In this document: positions 14,630 to 59,955 of the stretch, piece after piece
How positions within the stretch are numbered: position 1 is the stretch's first letter
Layout of the letters: each line of letters begins with the position of its first letter
From: an uncultured Syntrophomonadaceae bacterium
GTDB lineage: Bacteria; Bacillota; Dethiobacteria; DTU022
Assembly (NCBI GenBank): GCA_964463285.1
Contig: CAYXBB010000002.1
Span: 3,628 to 67,627, forward strand
Reading direction: 5' to 3'
DNA: 64,000 nt
Notes under the pieces: model-generated
The model's database searches: none
The model's input: the letters and a program-made list of their open reading frames with translations, nothing else
What the model was told of the DNA's origin: nothing
Position numbers and translations under genes: made by a program

Positions 14630-14662
14630 TTATTTTCAACAGGCGGGCGATGTCGTCCGCCC

Positions 14663-16732
14663 CTACAACATTTTCCGCAGATCCCTCCCCTTTGGTAAAG
14701 GAGGACCGGGAAGGATTTTCCCCTGGCCCCGGGAGGCGCTGGTCTGTTCCAGATCAAATATAATATCTCTTAACCCGGCTGCTCTTTCAAATTCCAGATC
14801 CCGGGCTGCCTGTTCCATTTCTCTTCGCAATCGGGCAATCGTTTTTTTTCGCTGAGAGGGTTCAAGATCAACCAGTTTTTCCGGACCGTATTCACCGCTT
14901 TCCTCTGCTGTCACGGTAGCCTCGATCAGGCTGCGCACCGGCTTGACCACGCTGCGGGGGGTAATCTGGTAAGTGCGGTTGTGGGCCATCTGTTTTTGAC
15001 GGCGCCGCTCTGTCTCTTCTAGGGCCCGGCGCATTGAATCGGTTATTATGTCGGCATACATGATCACCCGGCCGGAAATATTGCGGGCAGTCCGGCCGAT
15101 AGTTTGAATCAGTGAACGCTCCGATCTCAAAAAACCTTCTTTGTCCGCATCAAAAATGGCTACCAGGGCCACTTCGGGGAGATCCAGTCCTTCCCTAAGC
15201 AGGTTGATCCCGATCAGAACGTCAAATTCTCCTAAACGTAAACCCCGAATAATAGACATCCGTTCCAGGGCGTCGATATCGGAATGCATGTAGCGTACCC
15301 TTAAGCCCATTTCGCGATAATATTCGGTGAGGTCTTCGGCCATCCGCTTGGTTAAGGTGGTTACCAGCACCCGCTGGTTGGATTTGACTACTGACCGAAT
15401 TTCGCCATATAGATCATCTACCTGTCCACCCGCCGGTCGAACAAAAACCCGGGGATCCACCAGGCCGGTAGGACGGATGATCTGCTCAACCACCGCCTGG
15501 CTTTGCTCCAGTTCCCAGGGGCCGGGGGTGGCAGAAAGAAAAATGGCCTGTTTTATCAGCTGTTCAAATTCCTTGAATATAAGCGGCCGGTTGTCCAGCG
15601 CCGAGGGCAGACGGAACCCATGTTCCACCAAGGTGCTTTTACGTGAGTAGTCGCCGCGGTACATACCGTTTATTTGGGGAATAGTAATGTGGGATTCATC
15701 CACTATCAACAGAAAATCCTCCGGGAAATAATCGAGCAGGGTATAGGGCCGGCTTCCTTCCGGGCGCCGGTCAAAATGCCGGGAATAATTTTCGATTCCG
15801 GAACAGAAGCCCACCTCGGTAAGCATCTCCAGATCATAACGGGTACGTTGTTCAAGCCTCTGGGCCTCCAGCAGCCGCCCCTGTTGCCGCAGCGCTGAAA
15901 GACACTGTTTTAGTTCCTGCTGGATATCCGCTACCGCCAGGGGCAACAGCCCGGGAGAGGTAACATAGTGGGTAGCCGGAAAAACAGCGGCATGGGTGCG
16001 TTCTCCAATTACCCGGCAGGTCAGGGGATCTATCTCCCGAATCCGTTCAATCTCATCGCCAAACATCTCCACCCGCAGGGCCGCCCCGGTAAATGAGGCC
16101 GGGAAAATTTCAATCAGCTCTCCCCGGGCCCGGAAAGTTCCCCGTCTGAAATCAATTTCATTGCGCTGGTATTGAATGGATACCAGCCGGGAAAGAATTT
16201 CGTCCCGGCTAATCTCCGCTCCCACACGCAGTGAAAGCAGCTGTTCACCATACTCCCGGGGAGACCCCAATCCATAAATGCAGGACACGCTGGCTACGAT
16301 GATTACATCACGCCGTTCCAGCAGGGCACTGGTAGCAGAGTGGCGCAATTTGTCTATCTCGTCGTTAATAGAAGAATCCTTCTCAATATAGGTATCGGTC
16401 TGGGGGAGATAGGCCTCCGGCTGATAGTAATCATAATAGCTGATAAAAAATTCCACGGCATTGTCGGGAAAAAATTCTTTAAACTCGCTACAAAGCTGGG
16501 CAGCCAGGGTCTTGTTGGGGGCCATCACCAGGGTGGGACGCTGAATCTGTTGAATGATATTGGCCATGGTAAATGTTTTTCCGGAACCGGTTACCCCCAG
16601 CAGGGTTTGGTAACGAAAACCCTTGTTCAGTCCCTTTACCAGGCTTTGAATGGCCCGTGGCTGATCTCCGGCAGGAGTATAGTCGGTTACCAGTTTAAAT
16701 GGTTTTCCCGCAGGCATCTGTCGCACCTTCAT
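14663..16732 (-). CDS. uvrB: Excinuclease ABC subunit B
   Basis: 689 aa, helicase motifs [13 protein letters not shown]-terminal UVR domain. Confidence 0.95.
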
Positions 16733-28933: not shown

Positions 28934-31900
28934 TTATTTCCCACAACAACGCTTGTATTTTTTTCCGCTGCCGCAAGGGCAGGGTTCGTTGCGCCCTACC
29001 TTGGTCACCGTCACCGGTTTTTTTTCTGTCGGTTCTGTCGGCGCACGGGCAGGCGCCTTTATGTTTCCAGCGCCTCCACCTACCGGAGCCACCCGCTGGT
29101 GAGAGGCGGTAGCCGTGGCAATTACATCCCGACGTTGGGTGCGGGTGGCTACCCGCAACAAATAGATTAACCGGGACACTTCTTCCTGAATGGAGCTGAT
29201 CATGGCCTCAAACATATCGAACCCTTCGTGGCGGTACTCCACCAGCGGATCCTGCTGCCCGTAAGCCCTAAGCCCGATACTTTGGCGCAGCTCATGCATG
29301 GCATCAATATGATCCATCCAGTGACTGTCCACTGTGCGCAGTAACACCACCCGCTCCAGATCCCGCATATTTTCAGGGCCGATCTCCTTTTCCCGTCGCT
29401 CGTAATAGGCCAGTGCTTCCTCCAGAAGCAGTTGTTTTGCCGGCTCCAGATCCAGATCTATCAACAAAGAAGGATCCATCTTCCCCGGGGGCAAATAGAA
29501 ACGTTCCCCCTCCCGGACCAGCGCTTCCGCCTGGTCTTGTTCTAGAAACGGTTGTTCCATAAAATAAGTTTGTACCCGGCGGGAAATCACCTCTTCCACC
29601 ATATCCAGGATCGGTTGGCGCATATCTTTCTCTTCCAGTACCTGTTGCCGCTGTTCATAAATCACCCGCCGCTGTTCATTCAAAACATCATCATAATCCA
29701 ACAGGTGGCGCCGGATTTCAAAATTCCGGGATTCCACCTTCTTTTGAGCCCGCTCAATTGCTCCACCGATCAAGGGGTGTTCGATCGGCATATCCTCCTC
29801 CATGCCCAGCCGATCCATAATGGAGGCAATATTACCTCCCCCAAACAGGCGCATCAGATCATCCTCCAGGGAAATAAAAAACTGGGATGAACCGGGATCT
29901 CCCTGCCGCCCGGAACGGCCCCGGAGTTGATTGTCAATTCGCCGGCTTTCATGGCGCTCGGTGCCCAGGACATGCAGTCCCCCTAAACTCAGCACCTCTT
30001 CCCGCTCGCGAGAAGCCAGCGCCTGTGATTTTCCTATCAGCTCATCGTACCGCTGTTTGCGCTGTAGAATTTCTTCCGGTGATAATTCATCCCGCCCGGC
30101 ATATTCCTTGTGGAGTCGCTCACGAGCCAGGAACTCGGGATTGCCCCCCAGGATGATGTCGGTTCCCCGTCCGGCCATGTTGGTAGAGATGGTTACCGCT
30201 CCTTTGCGGCCGGCCTGGGCAATAACCTGGGCCTCCATATCATGGTTTACCGCATTTAACACCTGGTGGGGTATCCCCTGGCGTTTCAGCATCTTGCTGA
30301 GCATTTCGGATTTTTCCACAGAAATAGTCCCCACCAGCACCGGCTGACCGGAAAGGTGACGCTGTTCGATTTCCTCCATCGCCGCTTTAAACTTGGCCCG
30401 TTCGGTTTTAAAAATCATATCTGCCAGATCCTGGCGGATCATAGGTTCATTGGTGGGAATAACCACCACATCCATCCCGTAGATCTTCCGAAATTCTTCC
30501 TCCTCGGTAGCCGCGGTGCCGGTCATTCCGGATAGTTTCTCATACATCCGGAAATAATTCTGAAAGGTGATAGAGGCCACCGTGCGGCTGTCAGCCTGCA
30601 TTTCCACTCCTTCTTTAACCTCGATCGCCTGGTGGATCCCCTCCGAATAACGGCGGCCCCACATCAGCCGGCCGGTAAATTCATCCACTATAATTACTTT
30701 TCCTTCCTGCACCACGTAATCTACATCGCGCTCATAAAGGGAATAGGCCTTTAACAGCTGATGCAGGTAATGGAGATGTTCACCTGCTTCCTGATCCTCA
30801 CTCTCCGGTCCTTCGCCGGTACTGCCGGTGTTTTTAAAACCCAGAACCTGTTCCAGTTCGGCGTTCCCCCGCACCAGCTCCCGGTACCCCTGCTGAGAAA
30901 TGGAAACAGCCCGGGTAATTTCATCGATGGAAAAGTAAAGCTCTTCCTCCAAAACTTTGTCATCTTTATCGGCTTTCAACCGCTGCCTGACCCGTTCTAC
31001 CAACTTCTCCGCTCCCGGCTCTTTCAGCATATTCAGCAGCCGCCTGTTTTTGGGTGCACCCCGGCGGGCCAGGAACAACTGCTCTCCGGCCTCCTCTTTT
31101 AGTCCCTGTTCCAGATATTGCTGTGAGCGGTTCAGCAGCTCACTGATCTGGCGTTGCTGTTTTTTGATGAGGCGCTCCACCTCTCCCTTCCAGCGCCCGT
31201 ATTCGGACTTCGACTCCACCGGGCTGCTGATAATCAGCGGGGTGCGAGCCTCATCTACCAGAATGCTGTCTACCTCATCCACAATGGCATAGTGCAACTC
31301 CCGTTGCACCTGCTGATTTTTTGACAGCACCATATTATCGCGTAAATAATCAAACCCAAATTCGTTGTTGGTCCCATACACTATATCTGCAGAATAGGCA
31401 ATTTGGCGCTGCTCCCGGTTAAGGCCATGAACAATCAGGCCCACTTCCAGGCCCAGAAGGCGAAATATCGGGCCCATCCATTCACTGTCTCTTCGAGCCA
31501 GGTAATCATTGACAGTGATGATGTGAACTCCTTTGCCGGTCAAAGCATTGAGATAAGCCGGCATGACTGCTACCAGGGTCTTCCCTTCTCCGGTTTTCAT
31601 CTCGGCAATACGTCCCTGGTGAAGAACGATTCCTCCCAGTGCCTGCACATCAAAGGGGCGCATCCCCGTAGCCCGGCGAGAAGCCTCTCGGACTACGGCA
31701 AAAGCCTCCGGAAGAATTTGATCCAGGGTGCTCCCATTCCGCAACCGCTCCTTAAAGTGGGCAGTCCTTTGTGGAAACTCTTCGGTGCTTAAAGAGACAA
31801 CCGTCTGTTCCAACTCATTTATCTGTTCCACTATCTTTTGCAGACGTCGAACTTCTTTTTCGTTGGAGTCTCCGAAAAATTTTTGCAGGATGCCAGCCAT

Positions 31901-31942
31901 AAACCAGGGCCTCCTTTTGCTACCTAATACGATTATTTCCAA
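28934..31942 (-). CDS. secA: Preprotein translocase ATPase SecA
   Basis: 1002 aa, DEAD-like motor, C-terminal zinc-binding [14 protein letters not shown]. Confidence 0.97.
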
Positions 31943-32099
31943 TACTACAAAAGGAACCCTGCGGTTCCTTGAATTTTTTTCCCGTAGCAGTATAATATTT
32001 TACCATAGCCAAAAGCCTGTACACAAGGGTTTAAGCGCAGGAACCATTTGCGGGGTAAGCGAAAACCACAGTAAAAAAAATATTACCCTTTCTTGCCGG

Positions 32100-32888
32100 C
32101 TAGTTGATCGGAACACAAAACTTAATAGTTGTTCCGGTTACCGGGCTATCGGCAGTTAAAATTGCACAACCTATCCCATAAGTTTCTTCCAATCTTTTTT
32201 CAGTTATAACATTTTCAACATCGCCTACCGCCAAAATTTTTCCGCCGCTCATCAGGGCTACTTTGCCCGAGAGCAAAAGAGCATGATTAGGAAGATGAGT
32301 TGTCATTAATACAGTCAATCCCTTTTGTGATAATTTGCTGATTATCTTGAGAACAAGTGCTTGGTTTTTGAAATCAAGATGGGAGCAGGGTTCGTCAAGC
32401 AAAATTACATCCGGAGTTTGGGTCAGCGTCCTGGCTATAAGAATTAATTGCCTTTCACCACCGCTTATCTTTGTATAGGGTTTGTCTTTGAGATGAAGCA
32501 TGCCGACCATTTCAAGCGATTGCTCGGCAATATTAACATCTTTGGGCGAAGGCGATTCAAAAAAACCAAGGTAGGGTGCTCTGCCCATGCTTACCACTTC
32601 CAGAACTGAAAAAGGGAAAGGAGCACTGTGTTCCTGAAAAACAAAACCCATCCTTCGTGCCACATCAACCACACTCATATTATAAAGATCAAGCTTATCC
32701 AGAAAAACATGGCCCCTTGCAAGCCGCAAACTACCGTTCAGGCAGCGCAGTAAAGTTGTTTTACCACAACCATTGGCACCCAGAATGCATAGTATTTCAC
32801 CCGGCAAAACATCCAGGGTAATATCACTAAATATTCTTTTATCCCCATAACTAAATGTACCATTTCTAAGGGAAAGAAGCGCTCCCAT
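32100..32888 (-). CDS. ABC transporter ATP-binding protein (FecE/FepC/BtuD-type)
   Basis: 262 aa, Walker A GANGCGKTT, signature SGGERQ; AT-rich gene. Confidence 0.8.
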   Translation of the reverse strand: MGALLSLRNGTFSYGDKRIFSDITLDVLPGEILCILGANGCGKTTLLRCLNGSLRLARGHVFLDKLDLYNMSVVDVARRMGFVFQEHSAPFPFSVLEVVSMGRAPYLGFFESPSPKDVNIAEQSLEMVGMLHLKDKPYTKISGGERQLILIARTLTQTPDVILLDEPCSHLDFKNQALVLKIISKLSQKGLTVLMTTHLPNHALLLSGKVALMSGGKILAVGDVENVITEKRLEETYGIGCAILTADSPVTGTTIKFCVPIN

Positions 32889-33910
32889 TATTGCCAGCCC
32901 CCCTTGGTTTTGCGTATCAAATAGGCAAAAAAAGGTGCTCCGATAAGGGCGGTTAGTATCCCAAGTGGAATTTCTATTGAAACCGAAGCACGGGCTAAAA
33001 CATCAATAATAAGAAGGTAGGTAGCCCCTATAGAAATGCATGCCGGTATCAGCACTCTGTGATCCGGGCCAACCAGCATCCGCCCAATATGAGGAATCAC
33101 TAACCCAACCCACCCAATCATCCCACTGACTGAAACCGCTGAAGCGGTCATTATAGTAGCGCATAATATGATAAATGCCTTTAAAGATTCTGTTTTTATC
33201 CCCAAAGAACGAGCTTCTTCATCTCCCATTGCCAAAATATTTATCCGCCAACGCACCAACAAAAGACCAACCATTCCACAAATAATCCCTGGTAAAGCAG
33301 TAATAACATTTTTAATTGAAGCAGAGTTAAGGCTACCCATAAGCCAGAAGGTAATTGCAGGAAGTTTTTCGTATGGATCGGCCAAATATTTCGTTAACGA
33401 TACCAGGGCAGAAAAAAAAGCCGAGGTAACAACTCCTGAAAGAACAAGCATAATTACGGGGGTGGTTTTATATATACGGCTTATAGAATAGGTTACGATC
33501 ATTCCTATGATACCAAAACCCAATGCGAAGGCCTGGATCATCCCACGGTTGCCGGACAAAAGAATTGCCAGGGCTGCCCCGAAACTGGCCGCCGAAGACA
33601 CCCCTAATATATCCGGGCTGACCAATGGATTTCGGAACATACCTTGAAATGCCGCACCGCTAACAGAAAGAGCCGCCCCAACCAGAGCAGCCAAAAGAGC
33701 GCGGGGTATCCTAATCTGAAATATAACCGTTTCTGTCATGGTTGGCCAATTAGGGGCAAATTTGATTGAGGGAAATATTTTAGTAATTATAATCTGAATC
33801 ACCGTTTGCATAGAAATAGCATATCGGCCTAAAAAAAGGGTGAAAAGAAAAACAAAAATAGGTAAAATAATCAAAGCTACGATCTTTTTTTTAGACATTA
33901 GATCCTCCAA
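32888..33910 (-). CDS. FecCD-family ABC transporter permease
   Basis: 340 aa, about 9-10 TM, FecCD/BtuC-like. Confidence 0.8.
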   Translation of the reverse strand: MEDLMSKKKIVALIILPIFVFLFTLFLGRYAISMQTVIQIIITKIFPSIKFAPNWPTMTETVIFQIRIPRALLAALVGAALSVSGAAFQGMFRNPLVSPDILGVSSAASFGAALAILLSGNRGMIQAFALGFGIIGMIVTYSISRIYKTTPVIMLVLSGVVTSAFFSALVSLTKYLADPYEKLPAITFWLMGSLNSASIKNVITALPGIICGMVGLLLVRWRINILAMGDEEARSLGIKTESLKAFIILCATIMTASAVSVSGMIGWVGLVIPHIGRMLVGPDHRVLIPACISIGATYLLIIDVLARASVSIEIPLGILTALIGAPFFAYLIRKTKGGWQ

Positions 33911-34086
33911 CAGATCATCCTCTGCTGCTTTACAGGGCTAGATTTTTATACCAATGCAGATTTCGCTAGTAGTTGCCGTATTGCGGCTATAAGCTTAATA
34001 CAACACTGGGAGCAGTAAAACTATTATTACTACCCCCAGCACCTTAACCCCGTTCACATTAGACAACCGCCTGCAATGCTATTCGC

Positions 34087-34911
34087 TTAACCCTTTTTCC
34101 ACCATAGGAAAGCCCAACGACAGTTCAATTCCATATTAAGAAAGCCATTGTTGCGAACAAAATATTTAAGCAGATGGTTTTCTAAACGATTCTTTTGCCC
34201 ATCGTTTTCCGGTCTGATCCTCCATACCCAGTCATCCATGGCAATATCTATGTTCTGATAATGTAACTTCTCAACATAATTTACATATTCGACATTCGCA
34301 AAAATTCCTTCTTGGCAAAGCATATTATAAACATAGATATAATCAGGTGCAGAAAGGTACTTTTTCCCGATATTTCCGTAGGTCAATCTAAAAAAATTCT
34401 CATATTCATCACCATTTGCCCACATAACGATATACACATATTTTGTTGCCGCGTTATTCATCAATTTAATCGCTTGTAACGGATCGCGTTCGGGAAAAGC
34501 ACGAGAACAAATAACTACATCATGTGGGTTTACATCTTTTCCAACTATTACATCTTCCCAATTTTTTTTTAGGCATGTTATATTGTTTAAACCCTCTGAT
34601 TTAGCGTTTTTTGCCACATATTGCAACATCTCCCCTGACAAATCCAGGGCAGTAACAGCCTTTACCCGCTTTGCCAAGGGAATGGCTAGAGTCCCGGGGC
34701 CGCAACCGATATCCAACACGGTGGAATCGGGTGTAATGTCGACTTTTTCAAGCACCTCATCGATATATTCTTTGTTTTTTATGTTTCGATCAAAGGCTTC
34801 AGCCCTTTTGTCCCACCATTGTTCACCATCCTTTGTCCAGGAGGATAGGAGCATTTGTTCTTCCCATATTTTCTTCCAATCTATTGAACTGAGGTTTTCT
34901 TGTATTGCCAT
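34087..34911 (-). CDS. Class I SAM-dependent methyltransferase
   Basis: 274 aa, motif I VLDIGCGPGTLA, motif post-I ALDLS. Confidence 0.7.
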   Translation of the reverse strand: MAIQENLSSIDWKKIWEEQMLLSSWTKDGEQWWDKRAEAFDRNIKNKEYIDEVLEKVDITPDSTVLDIGCGPGTLAIPLAKRVKAVTALDLSGEMLQYVAKNAKSEGLNNITCLKKNWEDVIVGKDVNPHDVVICSRAFPERDPLQAIKLMNNAATKYVYIVMWANGDEYENFFRLTYGNIGKKYLSAPDYIYVYNMLCQEGIFANVEYVNYVEKLHYQNIDIAMDDWVWRIRPENDGQKNRLENHLLKYFVRNNGFLNMELNCRWAFLWWKKG

Positions 34912-34914
34912 TTT

Positions 34915-35988
34915 TTATTCTCCCAATAGATCTTTAATTGTTGAATCAGACATATTTTGATTGTAGAATGTCGAATAAAAATCCCTGATTTCTTGTTCCA
35001 TCGTAAAATCAACTTGATCCGGGTGCAATTTGTATATTGTCCACTGCATGCCCAGAATAGATTCGGGAACACCAACATACCAGCAGAATATATAGCCGGG
35101 CATTTGAAAAATTTGCTTGTTTTTGACAGCCTCTATATCAGCGAAGCGTGGGTCAGTAAGCAACTCATCTTTAGTGTCACTGGAACAATAGGTATTAATA
35201 AAAATAACATCCGGGTTCCAATTTAATAATTGTTCTGCGGTAATCTCGGGATATAATTCGCCGACTGTACTGCTGCTACCATCAATTTCTGCAGCAACAT
35301 TTATTCCTCCACCAACCCCCAAAATAAAATCTTCAATTGATGCAGCAGTACATGTTTTTAATATGTCGTGGCTGGTCATATAAACACGGCATTTTTCATT
35401 TTCAGGAATTTGCGAAGCCATATCTTCAATGTTGTTCATCTTGTCTTTGTAGTAAGAAACAAGTTCCTGTGCACGTGCATCTTTGCCCAACACTTTTCCC
35501 ATAAGCTGCATAGATTCGTTGAGATCTTCGATAGTATTCACATCGACATATACTACAGGACAATACTCTTCAATACCCGCAAATCTTTCCCGGTGTATTT
35601 TCCCGGCAAAAACAACATCCGGTTCCAGTTTCAACAATTCTTCTTTGTTATCACCTTCAATATCTCCAAAGCACGGCAAATCTTTAATCCTTGGATCCAT
35701 ACTATGTAAAACTTCACTATTAACATTTAGCATATCTATTCCCACAAAATGCTCAGTTCCATCAATGGCAATAACCATTGCAGTTGATGGTGGAAAAACG
35801 GTGACTACCCTTTCTACCTTGGCTGGAATTTCTACAGTTCTGCCGGCCATATCAACTACTGTTATGGTTTCGTCCCCATCTTCTAGTGCTCCACCGCCTC
35901 CCTGCTCATTGGAACACCCGGCTAAAACGCCTGCAAGCAAGGTGACAAGTAACAGAAAAACCATTGCCTTGTAAATGTTTTTCTTCAT
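34915..35988 (-). CDS. ABC transporter substrate-binding lipoprotein (PF01497-like siderophore/heme/corrinoid-type PBP)
   Basis: 357 aa, lipoprotein signal LLAGCSNE, periplasmic binding protein type III fold hallmarks. Confidence 0.75.
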   Translation of the reverse strand: MKKNIYKAMVFLLLVTLLAGVLAGCSNEQGGGGALEDGDETITVVDMAGRTVEIPAKVERVVTVFPPSTAMVIAIDGTEHFVGIDMLNVNSEVLHSMDPRIKDLPCFGDIEGDNKEELLKLEPDVVFAGKIHRERFAGIEEYCPVVYVDVNTIEDLNESMQLMGKVLGKDARAQELVSYYKDKMNNIEDMASQIPENEKCRVYMTSHDILKTCTAASIEDFILGVGGGINVAAEIDGSSSTVGELYPEITAEQLLNWNPDVIFINTYCSSDTKDELLTDPRFADIEAVKNKQIFQMPGYIFCWYVGVPESILGMQWTIYKLHPDQVDFTMEQEIRDFYSTFYNQNMSDSTIKDLLGE

Positions 35989-36118
35989 CTTAATTTTTGT
36001 TGTTAGTTAATTTGCTGTTCAAAAACCCGGTTTTTTCAATTTTATTGGTTATCCCCCCCCTATGGCAGTGGTTGTCCGGGCCAAGACAGCATCCACATCT
36101 TATTGCTTTATTTTAAAT

Positions 36119-36275
36119 AAAAAAAGGCAATTCCTGGAAGGGAAGTGCCATTTTTTGCAGCATTCTCCTTTCCAAGTTATGGGAGGCAATACCATTTCTA
36201 GTATTACCCTTTGGTTATACCTCGGTTACAAGCCATGCCTTCCGGTTTAGGCGCGTAACTCGGAGCGCTTTTAAT
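36119..36275 (-). promoter_or_regulatory. Structured 5' leader with intrinsic terminator upstream of the ABC-transporter operon; candidate Moco/Tuco-type riboswitch (unverified)
   Basis: Minus strand: GCGCTCCGAG ... GGTAATACtagaaatgGTATTGCCTCCC ATAACTT GGAAAGGAG ... GGCACTTCCcttccaGGAATTGCC TTTTTTT; terminator hairpin plus U7 at 36150-36119, about 130 nt before the start codon. Confidence 0.35.
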
Positions 36276-36468
36276 ATTCAGCTTTGTGTTTACGCTATCA
36301 TGGGTCAATATTTCTGTCAACACAGGGCAAGGTTTTTTTCGCCATCAAAATTAAAATCTGTTGTAAAAAAATCTTTATCATTACCCGGGGATAATCAAAC
36401 AACAAACAAGTGTTTTATTTTAACCCAGCCAAAAAACTAAAGGTCTACAGGCACTGGTTTGGGTTCGG

Positions 36469-37590
36469 CTAAACCTGGATATTGCCGGCAGCCAGTTCCT
36501 CGGCAATCGTCCACAGGCTGCCCGATACCAGGGAATGCCCCCCTAACATTACCGGGATCGGGCAGGAGACAGCCTCCCGGGTAAAACTTCTTAACCAGGG
36601 ATGATCAATCTCCTGGTACCTGCCCAAATCCGAAAGAAATCGTTCCCGATCCGAAAAGCTGTAACGGTAATGGGCCATCAGCACCCGAGTATCAATGAAT
36701 GCCGCCCCGACTATCCGGGAAAGGTAGTCGAAGAAGTTAGGTATCCCCGCATGGTCAATAAGGCAGCCCATTAAAGAGACTACCTGCTTTGCCTTCACCC
36801 GGCCCAGGGCCTTCATACCTCGTTCCTCGGAAAACACCCGCAGCCGGATTTTTAAGCTGGAATTAAGACGTTCAATTGCCGGGGCTCCTACCCGACCAAT
36901 AAGTGCTACCTCCTGGTAGTAGCCACTTAAAACCTGTTTGGCCCGCCGCAACCGGGAATAATCCCAGTCCAAGCCCGACAGGCAGGCCCTGGTTTGGGGA
37001 CCGGCAAAGGGGCTATCCCCCAGCACCAGGCCGTCAGCAGGAGTATCCAGATCAAATAACAAGCCCGAAGTAAAGGGCATCAATGCAAGTTCCAGTCCTA
37101 GCTGATCACGAAGGGTAGTTGCCAGGGTATTATCCATAGCCGGTAAGTCTATTCCGGAAAAATCCCCGGTTACCGTAAAAGCTACCAGGTCCGCAGACTG
37201 AACATTGTTGGCATAAAGCAGGCGAGTGCTGTTCAACAGGCGCCGGCAGATTGAAGACACCTCATCCTCCCTTACCAGGGGGCAGCCGGCGCCGCTAAAA
37301 TAAAACACTTTGGATAGGCGATGTTCCAGGATCAACCTTTTTAGTTCCGTTCCGAAATTAAATGAACCCGGAGAAAGGTGATTGAGAATTACCGTGGCTC
37401 CCTTCGCCCGGGCCAGTTCCGCCAGTTGGCGGTCATTGGTAGCCAGGTAAATCATACCGATCTCGGTTACCCGGTTGAGTTTATCCAGGTTGTCCAGCAG
37501 GGCGGCGGTACGTATCGAAGTAAGTTCCAACTCTACCGGGCTGGCCGGAGAGGTCCCTTCAAATATTACTGCGCTAACCTGTTCTAACAT
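36469..37590 (-). CDS. Conserved hypothetical protein (373 aa), unassigned
   Basis: Long ORF with high coding GC unlike adjacent AT-rich island; no motif I can assign. Confidence 0.4.
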   Translation of the reverse strand: MLEQVSAVIFEGTSPASPVELELTSIRTAALLDNLDKLNRVTEIGMIYLATNDRQLAELARAKGATVILNHLSPGSFNFGTELKRLILEHRLSKVFYFSGAGCPLVREDEVSSICRRLLNSTRLLYANNVQSADLVAFTVTGDFSGIDLPAMDNTLATTLRDQLGLELALMPFTSGLLFDLDTPADGLVLGDSPFAGPQTRACLSGLDWDYSRLRRAKQVLSGYYQEVALIGRVGAPAIERLNSSLKIRLRVFSEERGMKALGRVKAKQVVSLMGCLIDHAGIPNFFDYLSRIVGAAFIDTRVLMAHYRYSFSDRERFLSDLGRYQEIDHPWLRSFTREAVSCPIPVMLGGHSLVSGSLWTIAEELAAGNIQV

Positions 37591-41277: not shown

Positions 41278-42462
41278 CTATCCTCGTTTCAAATCCGAGA
41301 TCCGGTCCGTCCTTTCCCAGGGCAGATCCAGGTCAGGGCGGCCAAAATGCCCGTAAGCTGCCACCTGCCGGTAAATGGGACGGCGAAGATTGAGTTGCTC
41401 TATAATGGCCGCGGGGCGAAGATCAAACCTTTGTCGGATCAGTTCCTCAATATAGTTGTCCTTTTCCAACCCTGTCCCAGAAGTATCTACCGTTAAAGAT
41501 ACCGGTTGGGCCACCCCGATGGCGTAAGCCACCTGAAGTTGACACTTTTTAGCCAACCCGGCTGCCACAATGTTTTTAGCTACGTAGCGGGCGGCATAAG
41601 CCGCCGAGCGATCAACCTTGGTGGGATCTTTGCCCGAAAAAGCCCCTCCACCATGGGGAACATACCCACCATAGGTATCAACCATCAGCTTGCGACCGGT
41701 TAGACCGGCATCCCCCTGCGGCCCACCTATTACAAACCTCCCGGTGGGGTTAATTAAGATTCTGGTGTCCGGGGTTATCAATTCGGCGGGAACGGTTTCC
41801 AAAATAACTTGCCGGGTGATATCCTCCCGAATTGTTTCCAAATCAGTTTCGTTGGAATGTTGAGCCGAAACCACTACCGTCTCCACGCTAACCGGTCGCC
41901 CCTGTTCATAAAGCACGGTGATCTGGGTTTTGCCATCGGGGCGCAGATAATCCAGGATTTCCTGTTTGCGCACTTCGGCTAGACGCCTGGCCAGCCGGTG
42001 AGCTAAAGAGATCGGCAATGGCATCAATTCCGGGGTTTCGGTACAGGCAAACCCCATCATCATCCCCTGATCGCCCGCTCCCAACAAATTATAATGATTC
42101 TTTTCATCACCGGTTTTAGCCTCCCGGGAATGATTTACCCCCAGGGCAATATCCGGCGACTGCTCGTCTATAGAACAAAGAACTGCACAGGTATCCCCAT
42201 CGAACCCAAATTTGGCCCGGGTATAGCCGATCCGCTTTACTGTTTTCCGGACCAGATGGGGGATGTCTACATAGCAGTCAGTTGAAATTTCACCACAAAC
42301 AAATACCATGCCGGTTGTGACCATGGTCTCCGTAGCCACCCGGGCTACCGGATCCTGGCCGATAATCTCATCCAGAATTGAATCGGAAATCTGATCCGCC
42401 AGCTTATCCGGATGGCCTTCTGTAACTGATTCCGATGTGAACAGGTGCCGCCGTGATGTCAA
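41278..42462 (-). CDS. metK: S-adenosylmethionine synthetase
   Basis: 394 aa, [19 protein letters not shown] signature; TTG start with AAAGGAGG RBS. Confidence 0.95.
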
Positions 42463-42494: not shown

Positions 42495-42640
42495 AAAAAC
42501 AAAAAACCTCTTTAAAGATTGAGGCCTGAAATAGAACCTCTCATCTCCCGGAGCAGATCACTCTCCCCGCAGGAATTGGCACCGCAATCTAAGATCCGGT
42601 TGCCGGGATTCATCGGGCCCGTCCCTCCTCCACTCAGGAT
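42495..42640 (-). promoter_or_regulatory. SAM-I (S-box) riboswitch with terminator, leader of metK
   Basis: Minus strand CTCTTATCCTGAGTGGAGGAGGGACGGGCCCGATGAATCCCGGCAACC...GGTGCCAATTCCTGC...AGAGTGA matches S-box consensus; followed by hairpin and TTTTTTGTTTTTT. Confidence 0.85.
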
Positions 42641-42850
42641 AAGAGCTAAATTATAGAAATTATTAACATCAAAATACACTAAAATAATCCGGGTGTCAAA
42701 TAATAGTGAAGGAGGACCAGGCATTCCGTAAATGCCCTGTGATTAATTGTCGGCTTGGCGAATAAATATATCACGGGTGATTCCTTTCTTAAATATTTCA
42801 GTTATAAATATAGGCAGGAATTGCTAAAAATCAAATTGGAGGTGTTCTAT

Positions 42851-51174: not shown

Positions 51175-51285
51175 CTACAGCTCTTTGATTTTTTTCCTGG
51201 CTTCCTCAAAGTACCAAAAGGCAACGGCTACCGCACCGATTATGGAAATTGCCCCGAAAATATTATTTAAAACATTCCAGATCAT
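51175..51285 (-). CDS. Candidate 36-aa single-TM micro-protein translationally coupled to the symporter (ATGA overlap)
   Basis: MIWNVLNNIFGAISIIGAVAVAFWYFEEARKKIKEL; start ATG overlaps symporter TGA stop; terminator 44 nt downstream. Confidence 0.35.
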   Translation of the reverse strand: MIWNVLNNIFGAISIIGAVAVAFWYFEEARKKIKEL

Positions 51286-52796
51286 GCTTTAACCCCCTTC
51301 TGTTCTACCACTTCTTTGCCCAGGGCATTGGCAATCAGATATACTACCAGCGCGATCGGCGTAATTATAATAATTCCGTATTCTTGCCAAAGCTCGATGT
51401 TCCCAATCTGGATAACATATACCTCATAAAATTCATTCCAGGTTCCAAAGAAGTTGGTCCAGATATACCAGACAATGGAGCAGATCACACCCACGGCAGT
51501 GGACAAGGTGCCTGCTATTTTTTTGGGGGGAGTTTTGGAAAATGTCCCGAAATAAACCGGGATCAAAGAGGTGGTGATAATTATAGTGGCCTGGAATACC
51601 CAGGCTTCCATCATCCGTTCGAAAAACAAGGCCAGGGCCAATGATATAACCGCCGATATTACAACGCCGATTTTGGTCATCCGTTCGGTCTCTCGGGAGG
51701 TGGCCTGCGGTTTAAAAACTCCCTTGTACAGATCATACCCAAGCACTCCGCCGGCTACCAGAAAATAAGAATCGGCGGTTGACATGGCACAAGCCAGCAC
51801 CCCGGCCAGAAACAGTCCCATCACTCCAACCGGCAAATATTGCCCGGCAATGGCAAACAGTGCCTGATTGGGGGCAACCTCCGGGATAATTTCTAATCCA
51901 ATCGCCGCCGCTCCCAATATTCCTAAAAAAGTTACAATCCAATCAAATGACAACCACAGGGGAATTCCTACAAAAAAAGCCTTCTTGATTTCTTTCGGGC
52001 CTGCAGAAGCAAATATTCTTTGGAAAAAAGCCGGTTCCGCCAATGCTGCAAATGCGGTTAAGGAATAAGCTACCAGTATCCAGGGGGTTAGATAACCTAC
52101 CTCCGCCCGGAAAAAATATTCAAATTCACCGACGTAATTTTCCAGACCTATTATCACCTGGTCATACCCGCCTACCCCGTTCCAGCCCAAAATTAAGGCC
52201 AGGCCTACCGCGATCATCATTACAAAAAACTGAATAAAATCGGTCATAATTACCGCCCACAAGCCCCCGGTCCAAGTATATATTACAATTACCACTGACC
52301 CGATTAAAATTCCCACCCAGATGGGAATCCCGGTAAGCAGGTGTAATAAAAACCCTATGGCCATCATTTCCAGAGAATTGTTGGAATATAGGAATGCTGC
52401 AATGGAGGCAAAGATCCCGGCAACTTTACCATAGCTGTTAAACACAATGTCTTGCATGGTACAATCTTCGGGAAATTTTTCTTTAAATTTGGGGGCTAAA
52501 AAGGCCATGGCAAAATAAAGAGCGGTGAACGGTAAGGCGTAGAAATAGAAAGAGGATATCCCTTCGAAAAAAGATACCTCAGAATCGCCAAACAAAGTAT
52601 CCAACCCGTAAAATGTAGATACCAGGGTAGCCACCAGGAGCGGAGCAGTGATGTTTTTACCGGCCATAAAATAATCGTCAAACCCCTTGGATTTTTTGGA
52701 AAAATAAAATCCCACCCCCAGCATGCCGGCAATGTACAAAACAACGATAATCCAGTCCACTGCATGCAACCTGACTACAATTTCATCCACCTGCAA
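51282..52796 (-). CDS. Sodium:solute symporter (SSF family)
   Basis: 504 aa, about 13 TM, SSF N-terminal signature GxxxxxFxxAGR-like region (YFMAGKN). Confidence 0.85.
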   Translation of the reverse strand: MQVDEIVVRLHAVDWIIVVLYIAGMLGVGFYFSKKSKGFDDYFMAGKNITAPLLVATLVSTFYGLDTLFGDSEVSFFEGISSFYFYALPFTALYFAMAFLAPKFKEKFPEDCTMQDIVFNSYGKVAGIFASIAAFLYSNNSLEMMAIGFLLHLLTGIPIWVGILIGSVVIVIYTWTGGLWAVIMTDFIQFFVMMIAVGLALILGWNGVGGYDQVIIGLENYVGEFEYFFRAEVGYLTPWILVAYSLTAFAALAEPAFFQRIFASAGPKEIKKAFFVGIPLWLSFDWIVTFLGILGAAAIGLEIIPEVAPNQALFAIAGQYLPVGVMGLFLAGVLACAMSTADSYFLVAGGVLGYDLYKGVFKPQATSRETERMTKIGVVISAVISLALALFFERMMEAWVFQATIIITTSLIPVYFGTFSKTPPKKIAGTLSTAVGVICSIVWYIWTNFFGTWNEFYEVYVIQIGNIELWQEYGIIIITPIALVVYLIANALGKEVVEQKGVKA

Positions 52797-52834
52797 TCTA
52801 CCTCCTTGCGTTTAAAAATCGACCATCGGAACCT

Positions 52835-54133
52835 TTATTTTGGTTCGTTAGAGGAAGCTGAGAGCAATTTTTTCATAGCCTCCCGGTCTAGCTTACGCTT
52901 ATATTCCGACTCCATCTCCAAGAGAGCATAAGGATAACTGTATTCATCCATTAGCCGTAAATATGGCTCAGGAGCAAAAGCCTCCGGCCCGAACACCCCC
53001 CTTCCCTGCCATACCCCTTTGCCGATCAGTTCCAGGGTAATAGCCGTTCCGTATGCGGTTTGAGCCACCACTACCTGGGAACCCAAACGCTCCATGGTCT
53101 CCTGGTTATCCAGGCTCTGGTAAATAAAGACTTCCCGATGCAGCCCGTCTTTTTTACCGGTAACATGCACTCCTACGCACATTTTTCCTTTAAGCTTATC
53201 TCCGATATAGGCGGGATTTGGAGCTACCGCTTCCACCACATCCCGAGGTGATAGTTTAATCCCCTGAAAATCTATTTTTTCCTTACGATCCAAACCCAAA
53301 GCTCTCAGAACCTTCATCGCATTTATAATATCATCGCCCAGGGCAATTTTAAACGAAACTTTTTTTAGCCCTTTGTCAATATAGCGCGGCATGAGCACCA
53401 CTTCTTCATGCTCCACCTTCATTAATTTAACCGGGCCGATGCCTTCGGGAAAATAAAATATTTCCGGATCAGCAAACGGTTCCTGAACGTACCAGCCTTT
53501 TTCTCTCTCCCAGGTAACCGGAGGATTTAAAGTTTCATCGATCATGGTCCAGATTGAAAATCCAAAAGCAATTTCCAGCCCTTCGGCGGTTAGATTACCC
53601 CCATCTTTAACTGCAATCTCGTCAAGCTCGTCAAAACAATGTATCTCGGCAAACTTTGCAAACACATCCACCACGCCGGGATCAATGCCGGCTCCAATTA
53701 CCGCCATCAACCCTTTCTGCTGCCATTTGGAATCGGCCTGGAAATTGTAGGAGGCCATCAGTTCCGTATATCCCCGACCGATCGGATCTTCCGGATGAGG
53801 TTCCGACCAGGTCCCTAAATTTATATAATGACAACCCGCCTCAAAAGCAGCATCAAATAAATTTTTGGTCACAAACGGCGCCGCCGTATCCAGGATTAAA
53901 TCCACGCCATGTTTTCGGGCCAGGGCAACTACTTCTGAAATTTCTTGAGCATTAACCGGTTCCGCCGGAAATCTTTCCGGATCACCCACTTTTTGGGCTA
54001 CCTCCCCGGCTCTTTCCAGGTTGTAATCCGCCAATACCATTTTCTGTAACCAGTTACCCCTCTGATCCCGATCCCGAATTATCATGGCGATGGCTTCGCC
54101 TACCCCGCCTGTACCTACCAGCAACACTCTCAT
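52835..54133 (-). CDS. Saccharopine-dehydrogenase-like NAD(P) oxidoreductase, paralog 1
   Basis: 432 aa, N-terminal Rossmann VLLVGTGGVGEAIA, Sacchrp_dh_NADP-like plus C-terminal alpha/beta domain. Confidence 0.75.
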   Translation of the reverse strand: MRVLLVGTGGVGEAIAMIIRDRDQRGNWLQKMVLADYNLERAGEVAQKVGDPERFPAEPVNAQEISEVVALARKHGVDLILDTAAPFVTKNLFDAAFEAGCHYINLGTWSEPHPEDPIGRGYTELMASYNFQADSKWQQKGLMAVIGAGIDPGVVDVFAKFAEIHCFDELDEIAVKDGGNLTAEGLEIAFGFSIWTMIDETLNPPVTWEREKGWYVQEPFADPEIFYFPEGIGPVKLMKVEHEEVVLMPRYIDKGLKKVSFKIALGDDIINAMKVLRALGLDRKEKIDFQGIKLSPRDVVEAVAPNPAYIGDKLKGKMCVGVHVTGKKDGLHREVFIYQSLDNQETMERLGSQVVVAQTAYGTAITLELIGKGVWQGRGVFGPEAFAPEPYLRLMDEYSYPYALLEMESEYKRKLDREAMKKLLSASSNEPK

Positions 54134-54316
54134 TTTTTAAATCCCTCCTTATCAGTTATTGGTGGTATTGGGAAGCATTTGCAATAAGATCTAAACTAAT
54201 AATCTCGTTGGCATCGGGGGACATTTACAACTAGTCTTAAGTATGACAGTTTAGTGATGCGGTTTAACCTTTCAGGCAAGATCATTATTCGATAAATGTT
54301 CGAAATACCCTACTAT

Positions 54317-55639
54317 TTAGTTAATAGAATCTAGCACCTCATCGGTGGAAACATCGGGAAAAGCTGATAACATTTTTTTCATAGTCCCCTGATCTTGCTT
54401 GCGCTTATACTCCGAATCCATTTCCATCAGGCGGTAAGGATATCTGTATTCATCCATGAGTTTTAAAAAAGGTTCCGGGGCAAAAGCCTCCGGCCCAAAC
54501 ACTCCCCGGTCCCGCCAGATCCCTTTGCCAACCAACTCCAGGGTAATGACCGTCCCGTAGGCAGTTTGGGCCACCACCACTTGAGAGCCCAAGCGTTCCA
54601 TGGTCTCCCGATTATCCAGGCTCTGGTAAATAAATACTTCCCGGTGCAGTCCGTCTTTTTTACCAATTACATGTACCCCTACGCACATCTTGCCTTTTAA
54701 TTTGTCTCCAATATGAGCAGGATTTGGAGCTACCGCTTCCACCACATCCCGGGGTGAAAGTTTGATCCCCTGAAAGTCTATTTTTTCTTTGCGATTAAGG
54801 CCAATGGCTCTCAGAACCTTCATGGCATTAACAATCTCATCGCCCAGAGCAATTTTAAACGTGACTTTTTTTAGCCCCTTATCTATGTATCGCGGCATGA
54901 GCACCACTTCTTCGTGTTCCACTTTCATCAGTTTAACCGGACCTATGCCTTCCGGAAAATAAAATATTTCCGGATCAGCAAACGGTTCCTGAACGTACCA
55001 GCCTTTTTCTTTTTCCCAGGTGACCGGGGGATTTAAAATCTCGCCAATCATAGTCCAGATTGAAAAACCAAAAGCAATATCCAAACCTTCGGCGGTCAGG
55101 TTCCCACCATCTTTAACTGCAATTTCCTCCAGCTCATCAAAGCAGTATATTTCAGCAAACTTGGCAAATACATCCACCACGCCGGGATCAATGCCGGCTC
55201 CGATTATTGCCATCAATCCTTTTCGTCGCCACTTAGAATCGGCCTGGAAATTGTAGGAGGCCATCAGTTCCGTATATCCCCGACCAACCGGATCTTCCGG
55301 ATGGGATTCAGACCAAGTCCCCAGGTTTATGTAATGGCAATTCGATTCAAAAGCCGCATCAAATAAATTTTTGGTCACAAACGGCGGTGCCGCATCCAGA
55401 ATCAGGTCCACATCATGCTTGCGGGCCAGGGCTGCTATTTCGGAAACCTCCCGAGCATCAACCGGTTCTGCCGGAAATCTTTCCGGCTCACCCACTTTTT
55501 GAGCTACCTGCTTAATTCTTTCCGGATTATAATCCGCCAGCACCATTTTTTGTAACCATTTGCCCCCACGATTCCGATCGCGAGCTATCATGGCGATAGC
55601 TCCGCCCACCCCGCCTGTACCTACCAGTAGCACCTTCAT
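54317..55639 (-). CDS. Saccharopine-dehydrogenase-like NAD(P) oxidoreductase, paralog 2 (tandem duplicate)
   Basis: 440 aa, about 85-90% identical to paralog 1 over full length; long identical nucleotide runs. Confidence 0.75.
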   Translation of the reverse strand: MKVLLVGTGGVGGAIAMIARDRNRGGKWLQKMVLADYNPERIKQVAQKVGEPERFPAEPVDAREVSEIAALARKHDVDLILDAAPPFVTKNLFDAAFESNCHYINLGTWSESHPEDPVGRGYTELMASYNFQADSKWRRKGLMAIIGAGIDPGVVDVFAKFAEIYCFDELEEIAVKDGGNLTAEGLDIAFGFSIWTMIGEILNPPVTWEKEKGWYVQEPFADPEIFYFPEGIGPVKLMKVEHEEVVLMPRYIDKGLKKVTFKIALGDEIVNAMKVLRAIGLNRKEKIDFQGIKLSPRDVVEAVAPNPAHIGDKLKGKMCVGVHVIGKKDGLHREVFIYQSLDNRETMERLGSQVVVAQTAYGTVITLELVGKGIWRDRGVFGPEAFAPEPFLKLMDEYRYPYRLMEMDSEYKRKQDQGTMKKMLSAFPDVSTDEVLDSIN

Positions 55640-55830
55640 TTTTAGGATCTCTCCTTATAGTTGTTGGTTGTGTTGGAAACGCCTACAACTAAATCCCGGC
55701 AGTAAAACTGTAGTAGTATAGCTCAATATATTGGATCAATATTCGATAAATATTCTGTAAATATTTGAAATATCCTTTAAAAGCCATGTAAATCCCTTAA
55801 TTTAACGCCCATTAGTGATAGATCCGCTTC

Positions 55831-55846
55831 GGCAAAATATTTACCA
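55831..55846 (-). promoter_or_regulatory. Weak candidate sigma-54 promoter upstream of SDH-like genes
   Basis: Minus strand TGGTAAATATTTTGCC has GG-N10-GC spacing but poor -24 (TGGTA vs TGGCAC). Confidence 0.2.
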
Positions 55847-55955
55847 TTCCAATTTCCGTAATAAATAGCAGGAACCTTTCTCTACAGTATAGAATATTGC
55901 TTTAAAAAAGAAAAAGACGGTTTATTTACAAGTACAACCCAAGGAGGCGAACAGT

Positions 55956-56429
55956 TTGACAATGACGGCCCGGGATATTATGAGCACTGAGGTAATAAGC
56001 ATAAATGAACAACAAACCCTGCAGGAGGCAATTGTACTAATGGCCCGGCACAACATCAGCGGGTTACCGGTAACAAACGAGCAGAACGTTGTTATAGGCA
56101 TTATTTCCAACACCGATATTATCCGCTATTCTCAGCAGGTAAACGTGATTCCACTGGTGGACCTTTCAGGGTGGGTTTCCCCCCATACCAATATCACCGA
56201 CATTGCATCTTTGCGTAAGGGGATCGATCTTCTGGCCAATACTACAGTTATAAGCCTGATGAAGAGGAAGGTATATACTGCTTACGAAAACACCGGGATC
56301 ATTGATCTGGCCAGATTAATGAGCCAGCGCAAGATAAACCGCATCCCCGTTCTTGATGCTGCTCATAGGCTTGTAGGCATAGTGACCCGTGCCGACCTGG
56401 TAAAAAGTCTGGCCAAACAGGAACAATGA
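55956..56429 (+). CDS. CBS-domain pair protein
   Basis: 157 aa, two CBS repeats (ISGLPV...GII; INRIPV...GIVT); AAGGAGG RBS. Confidence 0.75.
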   Translation: MTMTARDIMSTEVISINEQQTLQEAIVLMARHNISGLPVTNEQNVVIGIISNTDIIRYSQQVNVIPLVDLSGWVSPHTNITDIASLRKGIDLLANTTVISLMKRKVYTAYENTGIIDLARLMSQRKINRIPVLDAAHRLVGIVTRADLVKSLAKQEQ

Positions 56430-56588
56430 TCTAAAGCAAACATTAATGATGAGAAGAAAACGTAAAACCATCATTTTTTGCCACCACCCTGGTTAGGCCG
56501 TTGCCCCATTATTATATATATTTAAAAAGACTGGGGTATTTAACTAGTTCCAATTTAATAACTGATACAATTTAGTTCCTGCTACCGA

Positions 56589-59809: not shown

Positions 59810-59938
59810 TCCTTATGTTTCTTCGGGAAGCATCCGAATAAAAGTAGGAAATAATATTCCTAATTCCATAAGATGCCAAAGACTATACTCGAAGAAGCTA
59901 TGTTCTCGATTTTAAAAATTTAAGTCCAATTATATATC

Positions 59939-59955
59939 TTGCAATTACTATGCCA
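59939..59955 (-). promoter_or_regulatory. Sigma-54 (-24/-12) promoter for the AOR-aminotransferase operon
   Basis: Minus strand TGGCAT-AGTAA-TTGCAA: GG and GC exactly 10 nt apart, about 118 nt upstream of AOR start; sigma-54 gene and a bEBP are in the window. Confidence 0.6.

Follow-up and report, generated by a model that had tools for sequence, protein, structure and literature searches.

The Leader and Its Operon

The 64-kb window described here (the whole stretch of DNA that was analyzed, from an uncultured Syntrophomonadaceae bacterium) contains a structured RNA leader upstream of a four-gene operon (32100–35988, minus strand) that encodes a substrate-binding protein (SBP), a methyltransferase, and the permease and ATPase of an ATP-binding cassette (ABC) importer (Table 1). 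A first-pass annotation, made from the sequence alone, had pointed out that the leader resembled the molybdenum/tungsten cofactor (Moco) RNA motif. Our analysis identified the leader as a genuine member of the Moco riboswitch family. Together with the terminator that follows it, the aptamer probably constitutes an OFF switch on an operon for a molybdenum/tungsten (Mo/W) importer of the MolBC-A kind.

An Rfam scan of the whole window at the gathering threshold returned three matches: RF01055, a SAM riboswitch and a tRNA. RF01055 is the Moco RNA motif, or molybdenum–tungsten cofactor riboswitch (Weinberg 2007; Regulski 2008, PMC2408646). The match to this model scored 64.6 bits, compared to a gathering score of 36 (E = 3e-13), and extended over its full length, model positions 1–135. 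The likeness of the GCCUCCC...GGAAAGG segment to the Moco 3' core, proposed in the first-pass annotation, was thereby confirmed by the covariance model, and there is no need to invoke a different or novel riboswitch.

Table 1. Positions of the leader elements and operon genes in the window.
Feature	Position	Strand	Composition or basis
Candidate promoter	36292–36320	−	−35 TTGACA (36320–36315), 17-nt spacer, extended −10 TGaTAGCGT (hexamer 36297–36292)
Moco RNA motif aptamer (RF01055)	36149–36277	−	Rfam covariance-model match and pair table
GCGCTCCGAG	36268–36259	−	Read from sequence
P1	CUCC 36265–36262 with GGAG 36168–36165	−	Covariance-model alignment
P2	~36259–36224	−	Holds the CCUAA/AUGG tetraloop receptor
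Tetraloop receptor in P2 bulge	CCUAA 36251–36247, AUGG 36236–36233	−	
Vestigial P3 region	36210–36223	−	Covariance-model alignment and minimum free energy (MFE) fold
P4	36209–36184	−	Pairs 36209–36199 with 36194–36184; holds the hairpin GGTAATAC/GTATTGCC
GAAA tetraloop on P4	36198–36195	−	
P5	CC 36183–36182 with GG 36173–36172	−	
GCCTCCCATAACTTGGAAAGGAG	36187–36165	−	Read from sequence
Aptamer 3' core UGGAAAGGAG	36174–36165	−	P5 3' strand, junction, P1 3' strand
Anti-terminator alternative	36135–36174	−	UGGAAAGGAG (36174–36165) with CUUCCCUUCCA (36145–36135); unconstrained MFE fold
Intrinsic terminator	36119–36149	−	GGCACUUCC/CUUCCA loop/GGAAUUGCC + U7; sequence and fold
SBP lipoprotein, 357 aa, lipobox LAGC, Peripla_BP_2, MolA/TroA_e-like clade	34915–35988	−	Pfam PF01497, 91.5 bits
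Class I SAM-dependent methyltransferase, 274 aa	34087–34911	−	Pfam Methyltransf_25/31
FecCD/BtuC-type permease, 340 aa, MolB-like	32888–33910	−	Pfam PF01032, 294.5 bits
ABC ATPase, 262 aa, MolC-like	32100–32888	−	Pfam ABC_tran

In the covariance-model alignment, nearly all of the blocks conserved in the family were present in the window RNA, namely CCGAG, CCUAA/AUGG, AGGG, GAAA, CCUCCC and UGGAAAGGAG, and the elements of the unpaired core (CCGAG, AGGG, CCUCCC and UGGAAAGGAG) were all found. Two features of the family, the GNRA tetraloop on P4 and its receptor in the P2 bulge (PMC2408646), are both there. The sequence blocks listed in the first-pass annotation were all located on the minus strand where it had placed them. 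The hairpin GGTAATAC/GTATTGCC, which it described as 8 bp long, is real, but extends to 11 pairs when G-U pairs are included. The assignment to the Moco family is based on the full-length RF01055 match, the conserved blocks and the compensatory changes described below. The RNA itself is ordinary, and any Rfam-based annotation would flag RF01055 at this position.

Related Loci and Conservation of the RNA

The relatives of the SBP included one exact match and six proteins at 51–67% identity, with the remainder at 36% or less. A Moco RNA was found ahead of related operons in five other loci, two of which come from cultured species. In L008 (SBP 56% identical), the genes follow the same SBP–methyltransferase–FecCD–ATPase order as in the window, and the RF01055 match is full length at 86.3 bits. 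In L010 (SBP 67% identical), the 3' half of the RNA is present, cut by the contig end. L019, with a methyltransferase 41% identical to that of the window, has the order SBP–methyltransferase–FecCD–ATPase–MoeA and an RF01055 match of 48.6 bits. The two cultured species are Acididesulfobacillus acetoxydans (L100; SBP 31% identical), in which an RF01055 match of 74.2 bits lies directly before the FecCD gene, and Aceticella autotrophica (L101; SBP 28% identical), in which a 75.2-bit match heads a long operon for a Tup/Mod-type transporter, DUF364, a FecCD-type transporter, a methyltransferase and a radical-SAM protein.

To compare the helices, the Infernal alignments of the window, L008, L019 and L010 (3' half) leaders were projected onto the model columns to give a pair table. 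(The MAFFT alignment set the 5' part of the window RNA one base out of register, and the Infernal alignments were used for the pairs.) Changes on both sides of a pair were seen in all four helices: 4/9 in P1, 8/15 in P2 (6/11 in P2a and 2/4 in P2b), 6/11 in P4 and 1/2 in P5. Canonical pairs filled 40 of the 44 cells in P4 and 28 of the 30 in P2a. The table comprises only four sequences, in alignments fitted to the model; within this small sample it agrees with the high RF01055 score. The comparison of orthologous leaders that had been proposed as a check thus showed the structure to be kept, with compensatory changes.

In the window, L008 and L010, the aptamer is followed by a terminator. That of L010 is strong (−18.4 kcal/mol), and L008 has the same anti-terminator logic as the window (see below), with GGAGAGA able to pair with UCUCUCC of its terminator.

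The Moco link holds for a subset of the related cassettes and not for all, since the methyltransferase-linked cassettes from a second metagenome scan carried no riboswitch of any family. A genome scan with the SBP returned relatives at 25–29% identity only, none of them with a Moco RNA, and a first metagenome scan with the SBP alignment gave no matches. L011, L012 and L013 showed no RF01055, but as only about 90–323 nt of upstream sequence was available, compared to an aptamer start at 289–460 nt, these loci (in the case of L012, probably) are uninformative rather than negative. Rfam detected no riboswitch class other than Moco in the 37 related loci (L001–L034, L040, L100 and L101), and no second conserved element was found in the 130–280 nt spacers, which had a mean identity of 44% and a fold z-score of −0.9.

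Some further observations were made in these leaders. The leader of L012 contains UUUGGGAAAGGAGAAG at 200–225, similar to the Moco 3' core, without a covariance-model match at E ≤ 1; it could be a decayed aptamer, or the aptamer could lie beyond the contig end. In L100, a run of seven tRNA genes (5315–6054) is located immediately upstream of the Moco riboswitch. Clusters of tRNA genes are common integration sites. A DDE transposase gene (14613–16196) is found in L101, near the radical-SAM fusion gene described below.

Terminator and Anti-Terminator

The terminator hairpin is made up of the arms GGCACTTCC (36149–36141) and GGAATTGCC (36134–36126), a CTTCCA loop and a T7 run (36125–36119), all on the minus strand. 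The arms have one internal C/U mismatch (4 + 4 pairs), and the fold reaches −12.6 kcal/mol only when the pairs between the A-tract and U-tract are counted (z = −2.5). A simple terminator scan did not list the hairpin. The first-pass annotation was therefore correct in recognizing a hairpin with a U7 tract, but overstated its strength. The same annotation placed the terminator about 130 nt ahead of an SBP start that lacks a good Shine-Dalgarno sequence, and both points hold: the SBP gene starts at 35988, 130 nt beyond the terminator, and its start codon is preceded by an A-rich leader, aacaacaaaaattaagATG (35989–36010), instead of a Shine-Dalgarno sequence. The orthologues have AAGGAG (L008), GAGAGGAAG (L010) and GGAG (L019) at this point.

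The unconstrained MFE fold pairs UUGGAAAGGAG, which comprises the P5 3' strand, the junction and the P1 3' strand, with CUUCCCUUCCAGG from the 5' arm and loop of the terminator, forming an anti-terminator. When the folds were constrained, the anti-terminator state had an energy of −54.0 kcal/mol, compared to −51.1 kcal/mol for the state with P1 and terminator. The folding model thus predicts two nearly isoenergetic states, as in a transcriptional OFF switch: given the energy difference, the ligand-free RNA would lean slightly towards read-through, and ligand binding worth a few kcal/mol would be enough to tip it towards termination. These pairings give in silico support to the earlier reading of the leader as a terminator-type expression platform.

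We envision the following mechanism. When the Mo or W cofactor is sufficient, the ligand-bound aptamer would lock UGGAAAGGAG into P5 and P1, allowing the terminator hairpin to form and stopping transcription about 130 nt ahead of the first gene. When the cofactor is scarce, UGGAAAGGAG would instead pair with the 5' arm and loop of the terminator, and RNA polymerase would read through. The overall logic would be that of product feedback on metal supply, as known from the Moco riboswitches that control modABC and tupABC. Transcription may start from the candidate promoter at 36320–36292, a plausible match that was not listed by a consensus promoter scan.

The Encoded Transporter

The best match for the permease in the Protein Data Bank (PDB) was HI1471, or MolB (2nq2_A), at 251.8 bits, compared to no more than 170 bits for FhuB, HmuU and BtuC. 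Likewise, the best match for the ATPase was HI1470, or MolC (2nq2_C), at 148.4 bits. For the SBP, the ranking was headed by three uncharacterized structural-genomics proteins (4ovk, 4hn9 and 4pag), followed by MolA (HI1472; 3psa/3psh), which was matched with E = 2.4e-24 when the single sequence was used and at 119 bits with the orthogroup profile. In Haemophilus influenzae, MolBC-A (HI1470/HI1471/HI1472) takes up molybdate and tungstate as a type II ABC importer (PMC4031551, PMC4245157). The window operon shares with it the gene content of SBP, permease and ATPase, a permease and ATPase whose nearest solved relatives are MolB and MolC, and an SBP from the Peripla_BP_2 (class III) clade to which MolA also belongs, even though MolA is only the fourth among the solved relatives of the window SBP. 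In databases, the homologues are annotated as "iron complex" or "Fe3+-siderophore" transporters.

There are also considerable differences. The window SBP is only about 25–28% identical to MolA, and the motifs conserved in its orthogroup, VYPPATA and TSHxILKTCTAAS with the invariant His207 and Cys213, do not match the residues aligned with them in MolA. In addition, the window operon contains an embedded methyltransferase gene, its SBP is a Gram-positive lipoprotein, and it is headed by a riboswitch, whereas no Moco RNA has been reported for molABC. The factor coupling molybdate to molABC transcription was stated to be unknown (PMC4031551).

The gene context in the related loci supports a Mo/W role for the cassette. 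MoeA is encoded in or beside the cassette in L019, L002 and L101, Tup/Mod-type transporters, together with DUF364, share the operon of the cassette in L100 and L101, and a molybdopterin oxidoreductase gene adjoins the cassette in L101. DUF364 occurs beside molybdate/tungstate transporters (PMC2954201; bioRxiv 10.1101/2024.03.05.583561). In a divergent regulator of the relatives, a PBP_like domain was matched to the C-terminal portion of the MoeA-fusion model NF011068 in NCBIfam; on the basis of this match, the regulator may belong to the TunR/COG1910 family. The long ATPase of L019 had no recognizable TOBE/Mop domain, which is uninformative with regard to oxyanion specificity.

Taken together, these findings make molybdate and/or tungstate, or a closely related Mo/W species, the most likely cargo of the importer, for use in cofactor synthesis. 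Moco-family RNAs precede genes that serve Mo/W transport, the making of the cofactor or enzymes that depend on it, and the window RNA fits this pattern, with MolBC-A nearest to the downstream transporter.

Several points weigh against this combined picture of riboswitch and importer. Deletion of P3 from the Escherichia coli RNA abolished regulation (Regulski et al., PMC2408646), yet P3 is degenerate in the window, where only three base pairs are possible. The terminator stem is mismatched and only moderately stable, and no clear intrinsic terminator was found in the L019 leader. Between the terminator and the SBP gene there is a weak promoter-like match (36068–36039, minus strand; CTGCCA, 18 nt, TAAAAT, 9/12), which would bypass the switch if it were real, although such matches occur at chance frequency here. 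No RF01055 was detected in the 520-nt upstream region of L009 (SBP 51% identical), an operon that carries extra genes at its head. As for the transporter, the low identity of the SBP to MolA and its differing motifs do not guarantee the same substrate, and the methyltransferase, which has not been reported in MolBC-A, is left unexplained by plain oxyanion import.

L009 also gave a cobalamin riboswitch match of 26.2 bits, below the threshold of 31.5; it was on the wrong strand and overlapped a gene end, and was rejected as chance.

P3 and the Identity of the Metal

P2 and P4 are joined by the linker CGAGGUAUAACCAAA, which is 15 nt long (36224–36210, minus strand; the first C is the closing base of P2) and can form only a 3-bp GGU/ACC mini-hairpin (36221–36219 with 36215–36213) in the MFE fold. 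The RF01055 model aligned the P3 pairs of the window RNA as non-canonical or gapped. P3 consists of 5–6 bp in L008, L019 and L100. The L101 RNA is P3-less, with a linker of about 4 nt, as is the Syntrophomonas wolfei example in the 2008 supplement; such RNAs join P2 to P4 by about 4–5 nt. At 15 nt, the window linker does not represent the clean deletion to a few-nucleotide joint seen in the type that is associated with the tungsten cofactor (Tuco). By its sequence, the window RNA appears to be intermediate, with a linker the size of P3 and almost no pairing. P3-containing RNAs correlate with the molybdenum cofactor and P3-less RNAs with the tungsten cofactor (Regulski et al., PMC2408646), a rule that is a correlation and not a tested specificity determinant (PMC2408646). 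The aptamers found before these related operons are P3-containing, P3-vestigial or P3-less, and thus make up a natural test set for the unproven rule.

We considered the possibility that the switch is the same, but senses Tuco, in which case the degenerate P3 would be a Tuco variant and the operon would supply tungstate for an AOR-family enzyme encoded 22 kb away. Enzymes of the AOR family are typically tungsten-dependent. The AOR-family gene (AFOR_N and AFOR_C domains; 57905–59809, minus strand) lies in the window, as first noted; its sequence does not reveal the metal it uses. Besides this gene and the failure of P3 to form in the covariance-model alignment, the correlation of P3 loss with tungsten metabolism (Regulski et al.) and the ability of MolA to bind tungstate as well as molybdate would be consistent with a Tuco sensor, as would the P3-less RNA of L101, which stands at the head of an operon combining a Tup/Mod-type transporter with a FecCD-type system. 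However, the 15-nt linker has about the length of P3, unlike those of the real P3-less RNAs of L101 and S. wolfei, and the close orthologue L008 and the cassettes L019 and L100 have kept a good P3 of the Moco type; the P3 rule itself is a correlation. A Tuco sensor is accordingly a tentative reading, with a substantial but minor share of the probability, and the ligand is best referred to as a "Moco-family cofactor", with tungsten the less probable metal.

The Methyltransferase and Alternative Substrates

The methyltransferase belongs to a family with at least 649 full-length homologues, which occur in many anaerobes. Its place in the operon is the same in L008, L009 and L019, and linkage to transporter genes was seen in L014–18, L020, L023, L031–34, L040 and L101; methyltransferase and FecCD-type transporter genes were found together at a dozen loci or more. 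BioB/HmdB-like radical-SAM proteins are frequent partners and NifH/NifEN-like proteins occasional ones, and a sulfite-oxidase-type Moco domain is also among them. Searches for a specific function in Pfam, NCBIfam, PDB sequences and Foldseek yielded only generic class I small-molecule methyltransferases. The AF2 model of the protein (pLDDT 92.7) had generic small-molecule methyltransferases as its nearest folds in Foldseek, and the match to CpaM was weak, at 52 bits compared to a cutoff of 180.

Several of the relatives have partner genes of their own. A radical-SAM protein is encoded together with a 582-aa double methyltransferase in L014 (117–2760), while L016, L017 and L018 (~5150–9340) encode a NifH/CfbC-like ATPase, two NifE/NifD-like proteins and a small sulfite-oxidase-type Moco-domain protein; the partner genes of L014 and L016–L018 are the same set as in a Desulfitobacterium hafniense Moco-RNA operon of the 2008 supplement. 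In L101, a 594-aa fusion of a radical-SAM domain with a weak Peripla_BP_2 match (9849–11633) directly follows the methyltransferase.

A methyltransferase is not needed for plain oxyanion import and the SBP motifs are unlike those of MolA, which leaves room for a different Mo/W substrate. The riboswitch would then be as described above, but transporter and methyltransferase would handle another Mo/W compound, such as thiomolybdate or thiotungstate, a chelated metal or a pterin precursor, with the participation of DUF364, BioB/HmdB-like radical-SAM and NifH/NifEN-like proteins in the relatives. The cassette might in that case represent an uncharacterized pathway of strict anaerobes for taking up an alternative Mo/W species and processing it on the way to the cofactor, with thiomolybdate, thiotungstate and a chelated or pterin-bound form as candidates. 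In sulfidic water, thiomolybdate and thiotungstate dominate. The methyltransferase is kept in the cassette across many lineages and recurs with radical-SAM, DUF364, NifH/NifEN-like and sulfite-oxidase-type Moco-domain genes, the SBP motifs, which contain an invariant Cys and His, are unlike the MolA residues aligned with them, and type II importers usually carry large, cofactor-like substrates. In addition, DUF364 has been proposed to make a flavin- or pterin-like metal chelator (PMC2954201), and tetrathiomolybdate can be used as a Mo source by an anaerobe (PMC11484787). Nevertheless, the permease is far nearer to MolB, which takes a small substrate, than to BtuC, HmuU or FhuB, the fold search returned only generic small-molecule methyltransferases, and the window operon itself lacks DUF364, radical-SAM and Nif-like genes. 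Both the use of another Mo/W compound and the existence of such a pathway therefore seem unlikely.

Least of all do we favor the reading of the RF01055 match as a decaying relic or chance, with the hairpin and U7 an ordinary terminator or attenuator and the operon an iron–siderophore importer: in spite of the degenerate P3, the annotation of homologues as iron complex transport proteins and the foreign GC content of the island, this is highly improbable with a score 28 bits over the curated threshold, conserved core nucleotides that are nearly all intact, the occurrence of the same RNA, with compensatory changes, ahead of related operons at five further loci, an anti-terminator that overlaps exactly the aptamer 3' core, and Mo/W genes linked to the cassette in relatives.

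Comparison with Known Systems

As a proposed OFF switch on a probable Mo/W importer, the window system has much in common with the Moco RNA family: the P1-P2-P4-P5 architecture, the GAAA tetraloop and CCUAA/AUGG receptor, the CCUCCC...UGGAAAGGAG core, the terminator-type platform found in some members, and the control of a transporter that supplies Mo or W. It differs in that P3 is neither clearly present nor cleanly deleted, and in its target, a type II importer of the FecCD/BtuCD fold with a methyltransferase, rather than ModABC, TupABC or WtpABC.

The first-pass annotation considered a Moco switch on a FecBCD-type transporter to be unusual, a view that should be toned down in light of two D. 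hafniense operons and the likeness to MolB, MolC and MolA. In the supplement of Regulski 2008 (PMC2408646), one of these operons is listed as RNA → Crp → FepD → FepC → COG2014 → TroA_e, and the other as RNA → MoeA → NifH → nitrogenase-like (two genes) → MoeA → FecCD → FepC → TroA_e → BioB; they are labeled Dha-1-1/1-2 and Dha-1-3/2-2 and were not discussed in the main text. According to the genome paper, the extra nif-like operons of D. hafniense are all linked to transporter genes (PMC3306737). Common to these operons and the window is a Moco RNA upstream of FepD/FecCD, FepC and TroA_e genes in a clostridial anaerobe, and the D. hafniense partners COG2014 (DUF364), BioB-like radical SAM, NifH/NifDK-like and MoeA are also found in L009, L014, L016, L019, L100 and L101. 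In D. hafniense, however, the transporter genes lie deep in longer operons, preceded by Crp or MoeA/Nif-like genes and with no methyltransferase listed, whereas the window operon is minimal and has the SBP gene first. A search of the accessible literature found no paper connecting a riboswitch with MolBC or MolABC. The combination of a Moco switch with a FecCD-type transporter is thus documented but unexplained, and becomes coherent once MolBC-A is considered.

The cobalamin riboswitch on BtuFCD provides a parallel, being a cofactor-sensing OFF riboswitch ahead of a type II ABC importer. The RNA family is different, and no cobalamin riboswitch was found above threshold in any related locus. 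Furthermore, BtuFCD imports the sensed cofactor itself, while the window importer probably takes up a metal precursor.

With the window included, at least six loci of Clostridia-type anaerobes have a Moco riboswitch ahead of a BtuCD/FecCD-fold importer, in addition to the two operons in D. hafniense. This provides an independent line of evidence, from regulation, that the role of MolABC-like systems in Mo/W homeostasis reaches far outside the Pasteurellaceae. Many "iron complex" and "Fe3+-siderophore" annotations would be corrected, as the nearest characterized relative is MolBC-A, and a large uncharacterized methyltransferase family, along with the DUF364 and radical-SAM partners, is flagged as a likely player in Mo/W acquisition. 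The value of the finding lies less in the RNA than in this functional label for a poorly annotated transporter and methyltransferase cassette, and Aceticella autotrophica and Acididesulfobacillus acetoxydans, as cultured hosts with the arrangement, offer a testable system.

Genomic Surroundings

The riboswitch and the four-gene operon are located in a region (32000–36400) with a GC content of 0.37–0.44, compared to 0.51–0.55 in the flanks. This low-GC island sits between secA (28934–31942) and a 373-aa open reading frame (ORF) adjoining hpf. Its composition suggests that riboswitch and operon were acquired together by horizontal transfer. The 373-aa ORF (36469–37590, minus strand), between hpf and the riboswitch, had no Pfam or NCBIfam match, and its exact sequence was found on only two contigs.

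Within the operon, the gap between the methyltransferase and permease genes (33911–34086, minus strand) is unusually long, at about 176 nt, compared to 55–89 nt in L008 and L009. It contains a 14-bp hairpin, GCUGGGGGUAGUAA...UUACUGCUCCCAGU, without a U-run (fold z-score −3.2), which might serve as an element for processing or stability, or act as a partial terminator.

Elsewhere in the window, the SAM riboswitch (RF00162, 80.9 bits; 42538–42645, minus strand) is found directly upstream of a metK-like ORF (41278–42462), a known arrangement. The AOR-family gene is part of a cluster (51282–62131, minus strand) that also encodes a class III aminotransferase, two saccharopine-dehydrogenase-like proteins and a sodium:solute symporter. 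Upstream, at 60455–62131, is the gene for a sigma-54 activator with PAS domains, while sigma-54 itself is encoded at 6474–7868. The cluster may be an operon for amino-acid or polyamine catabolism that uses a tungsten enzyme.

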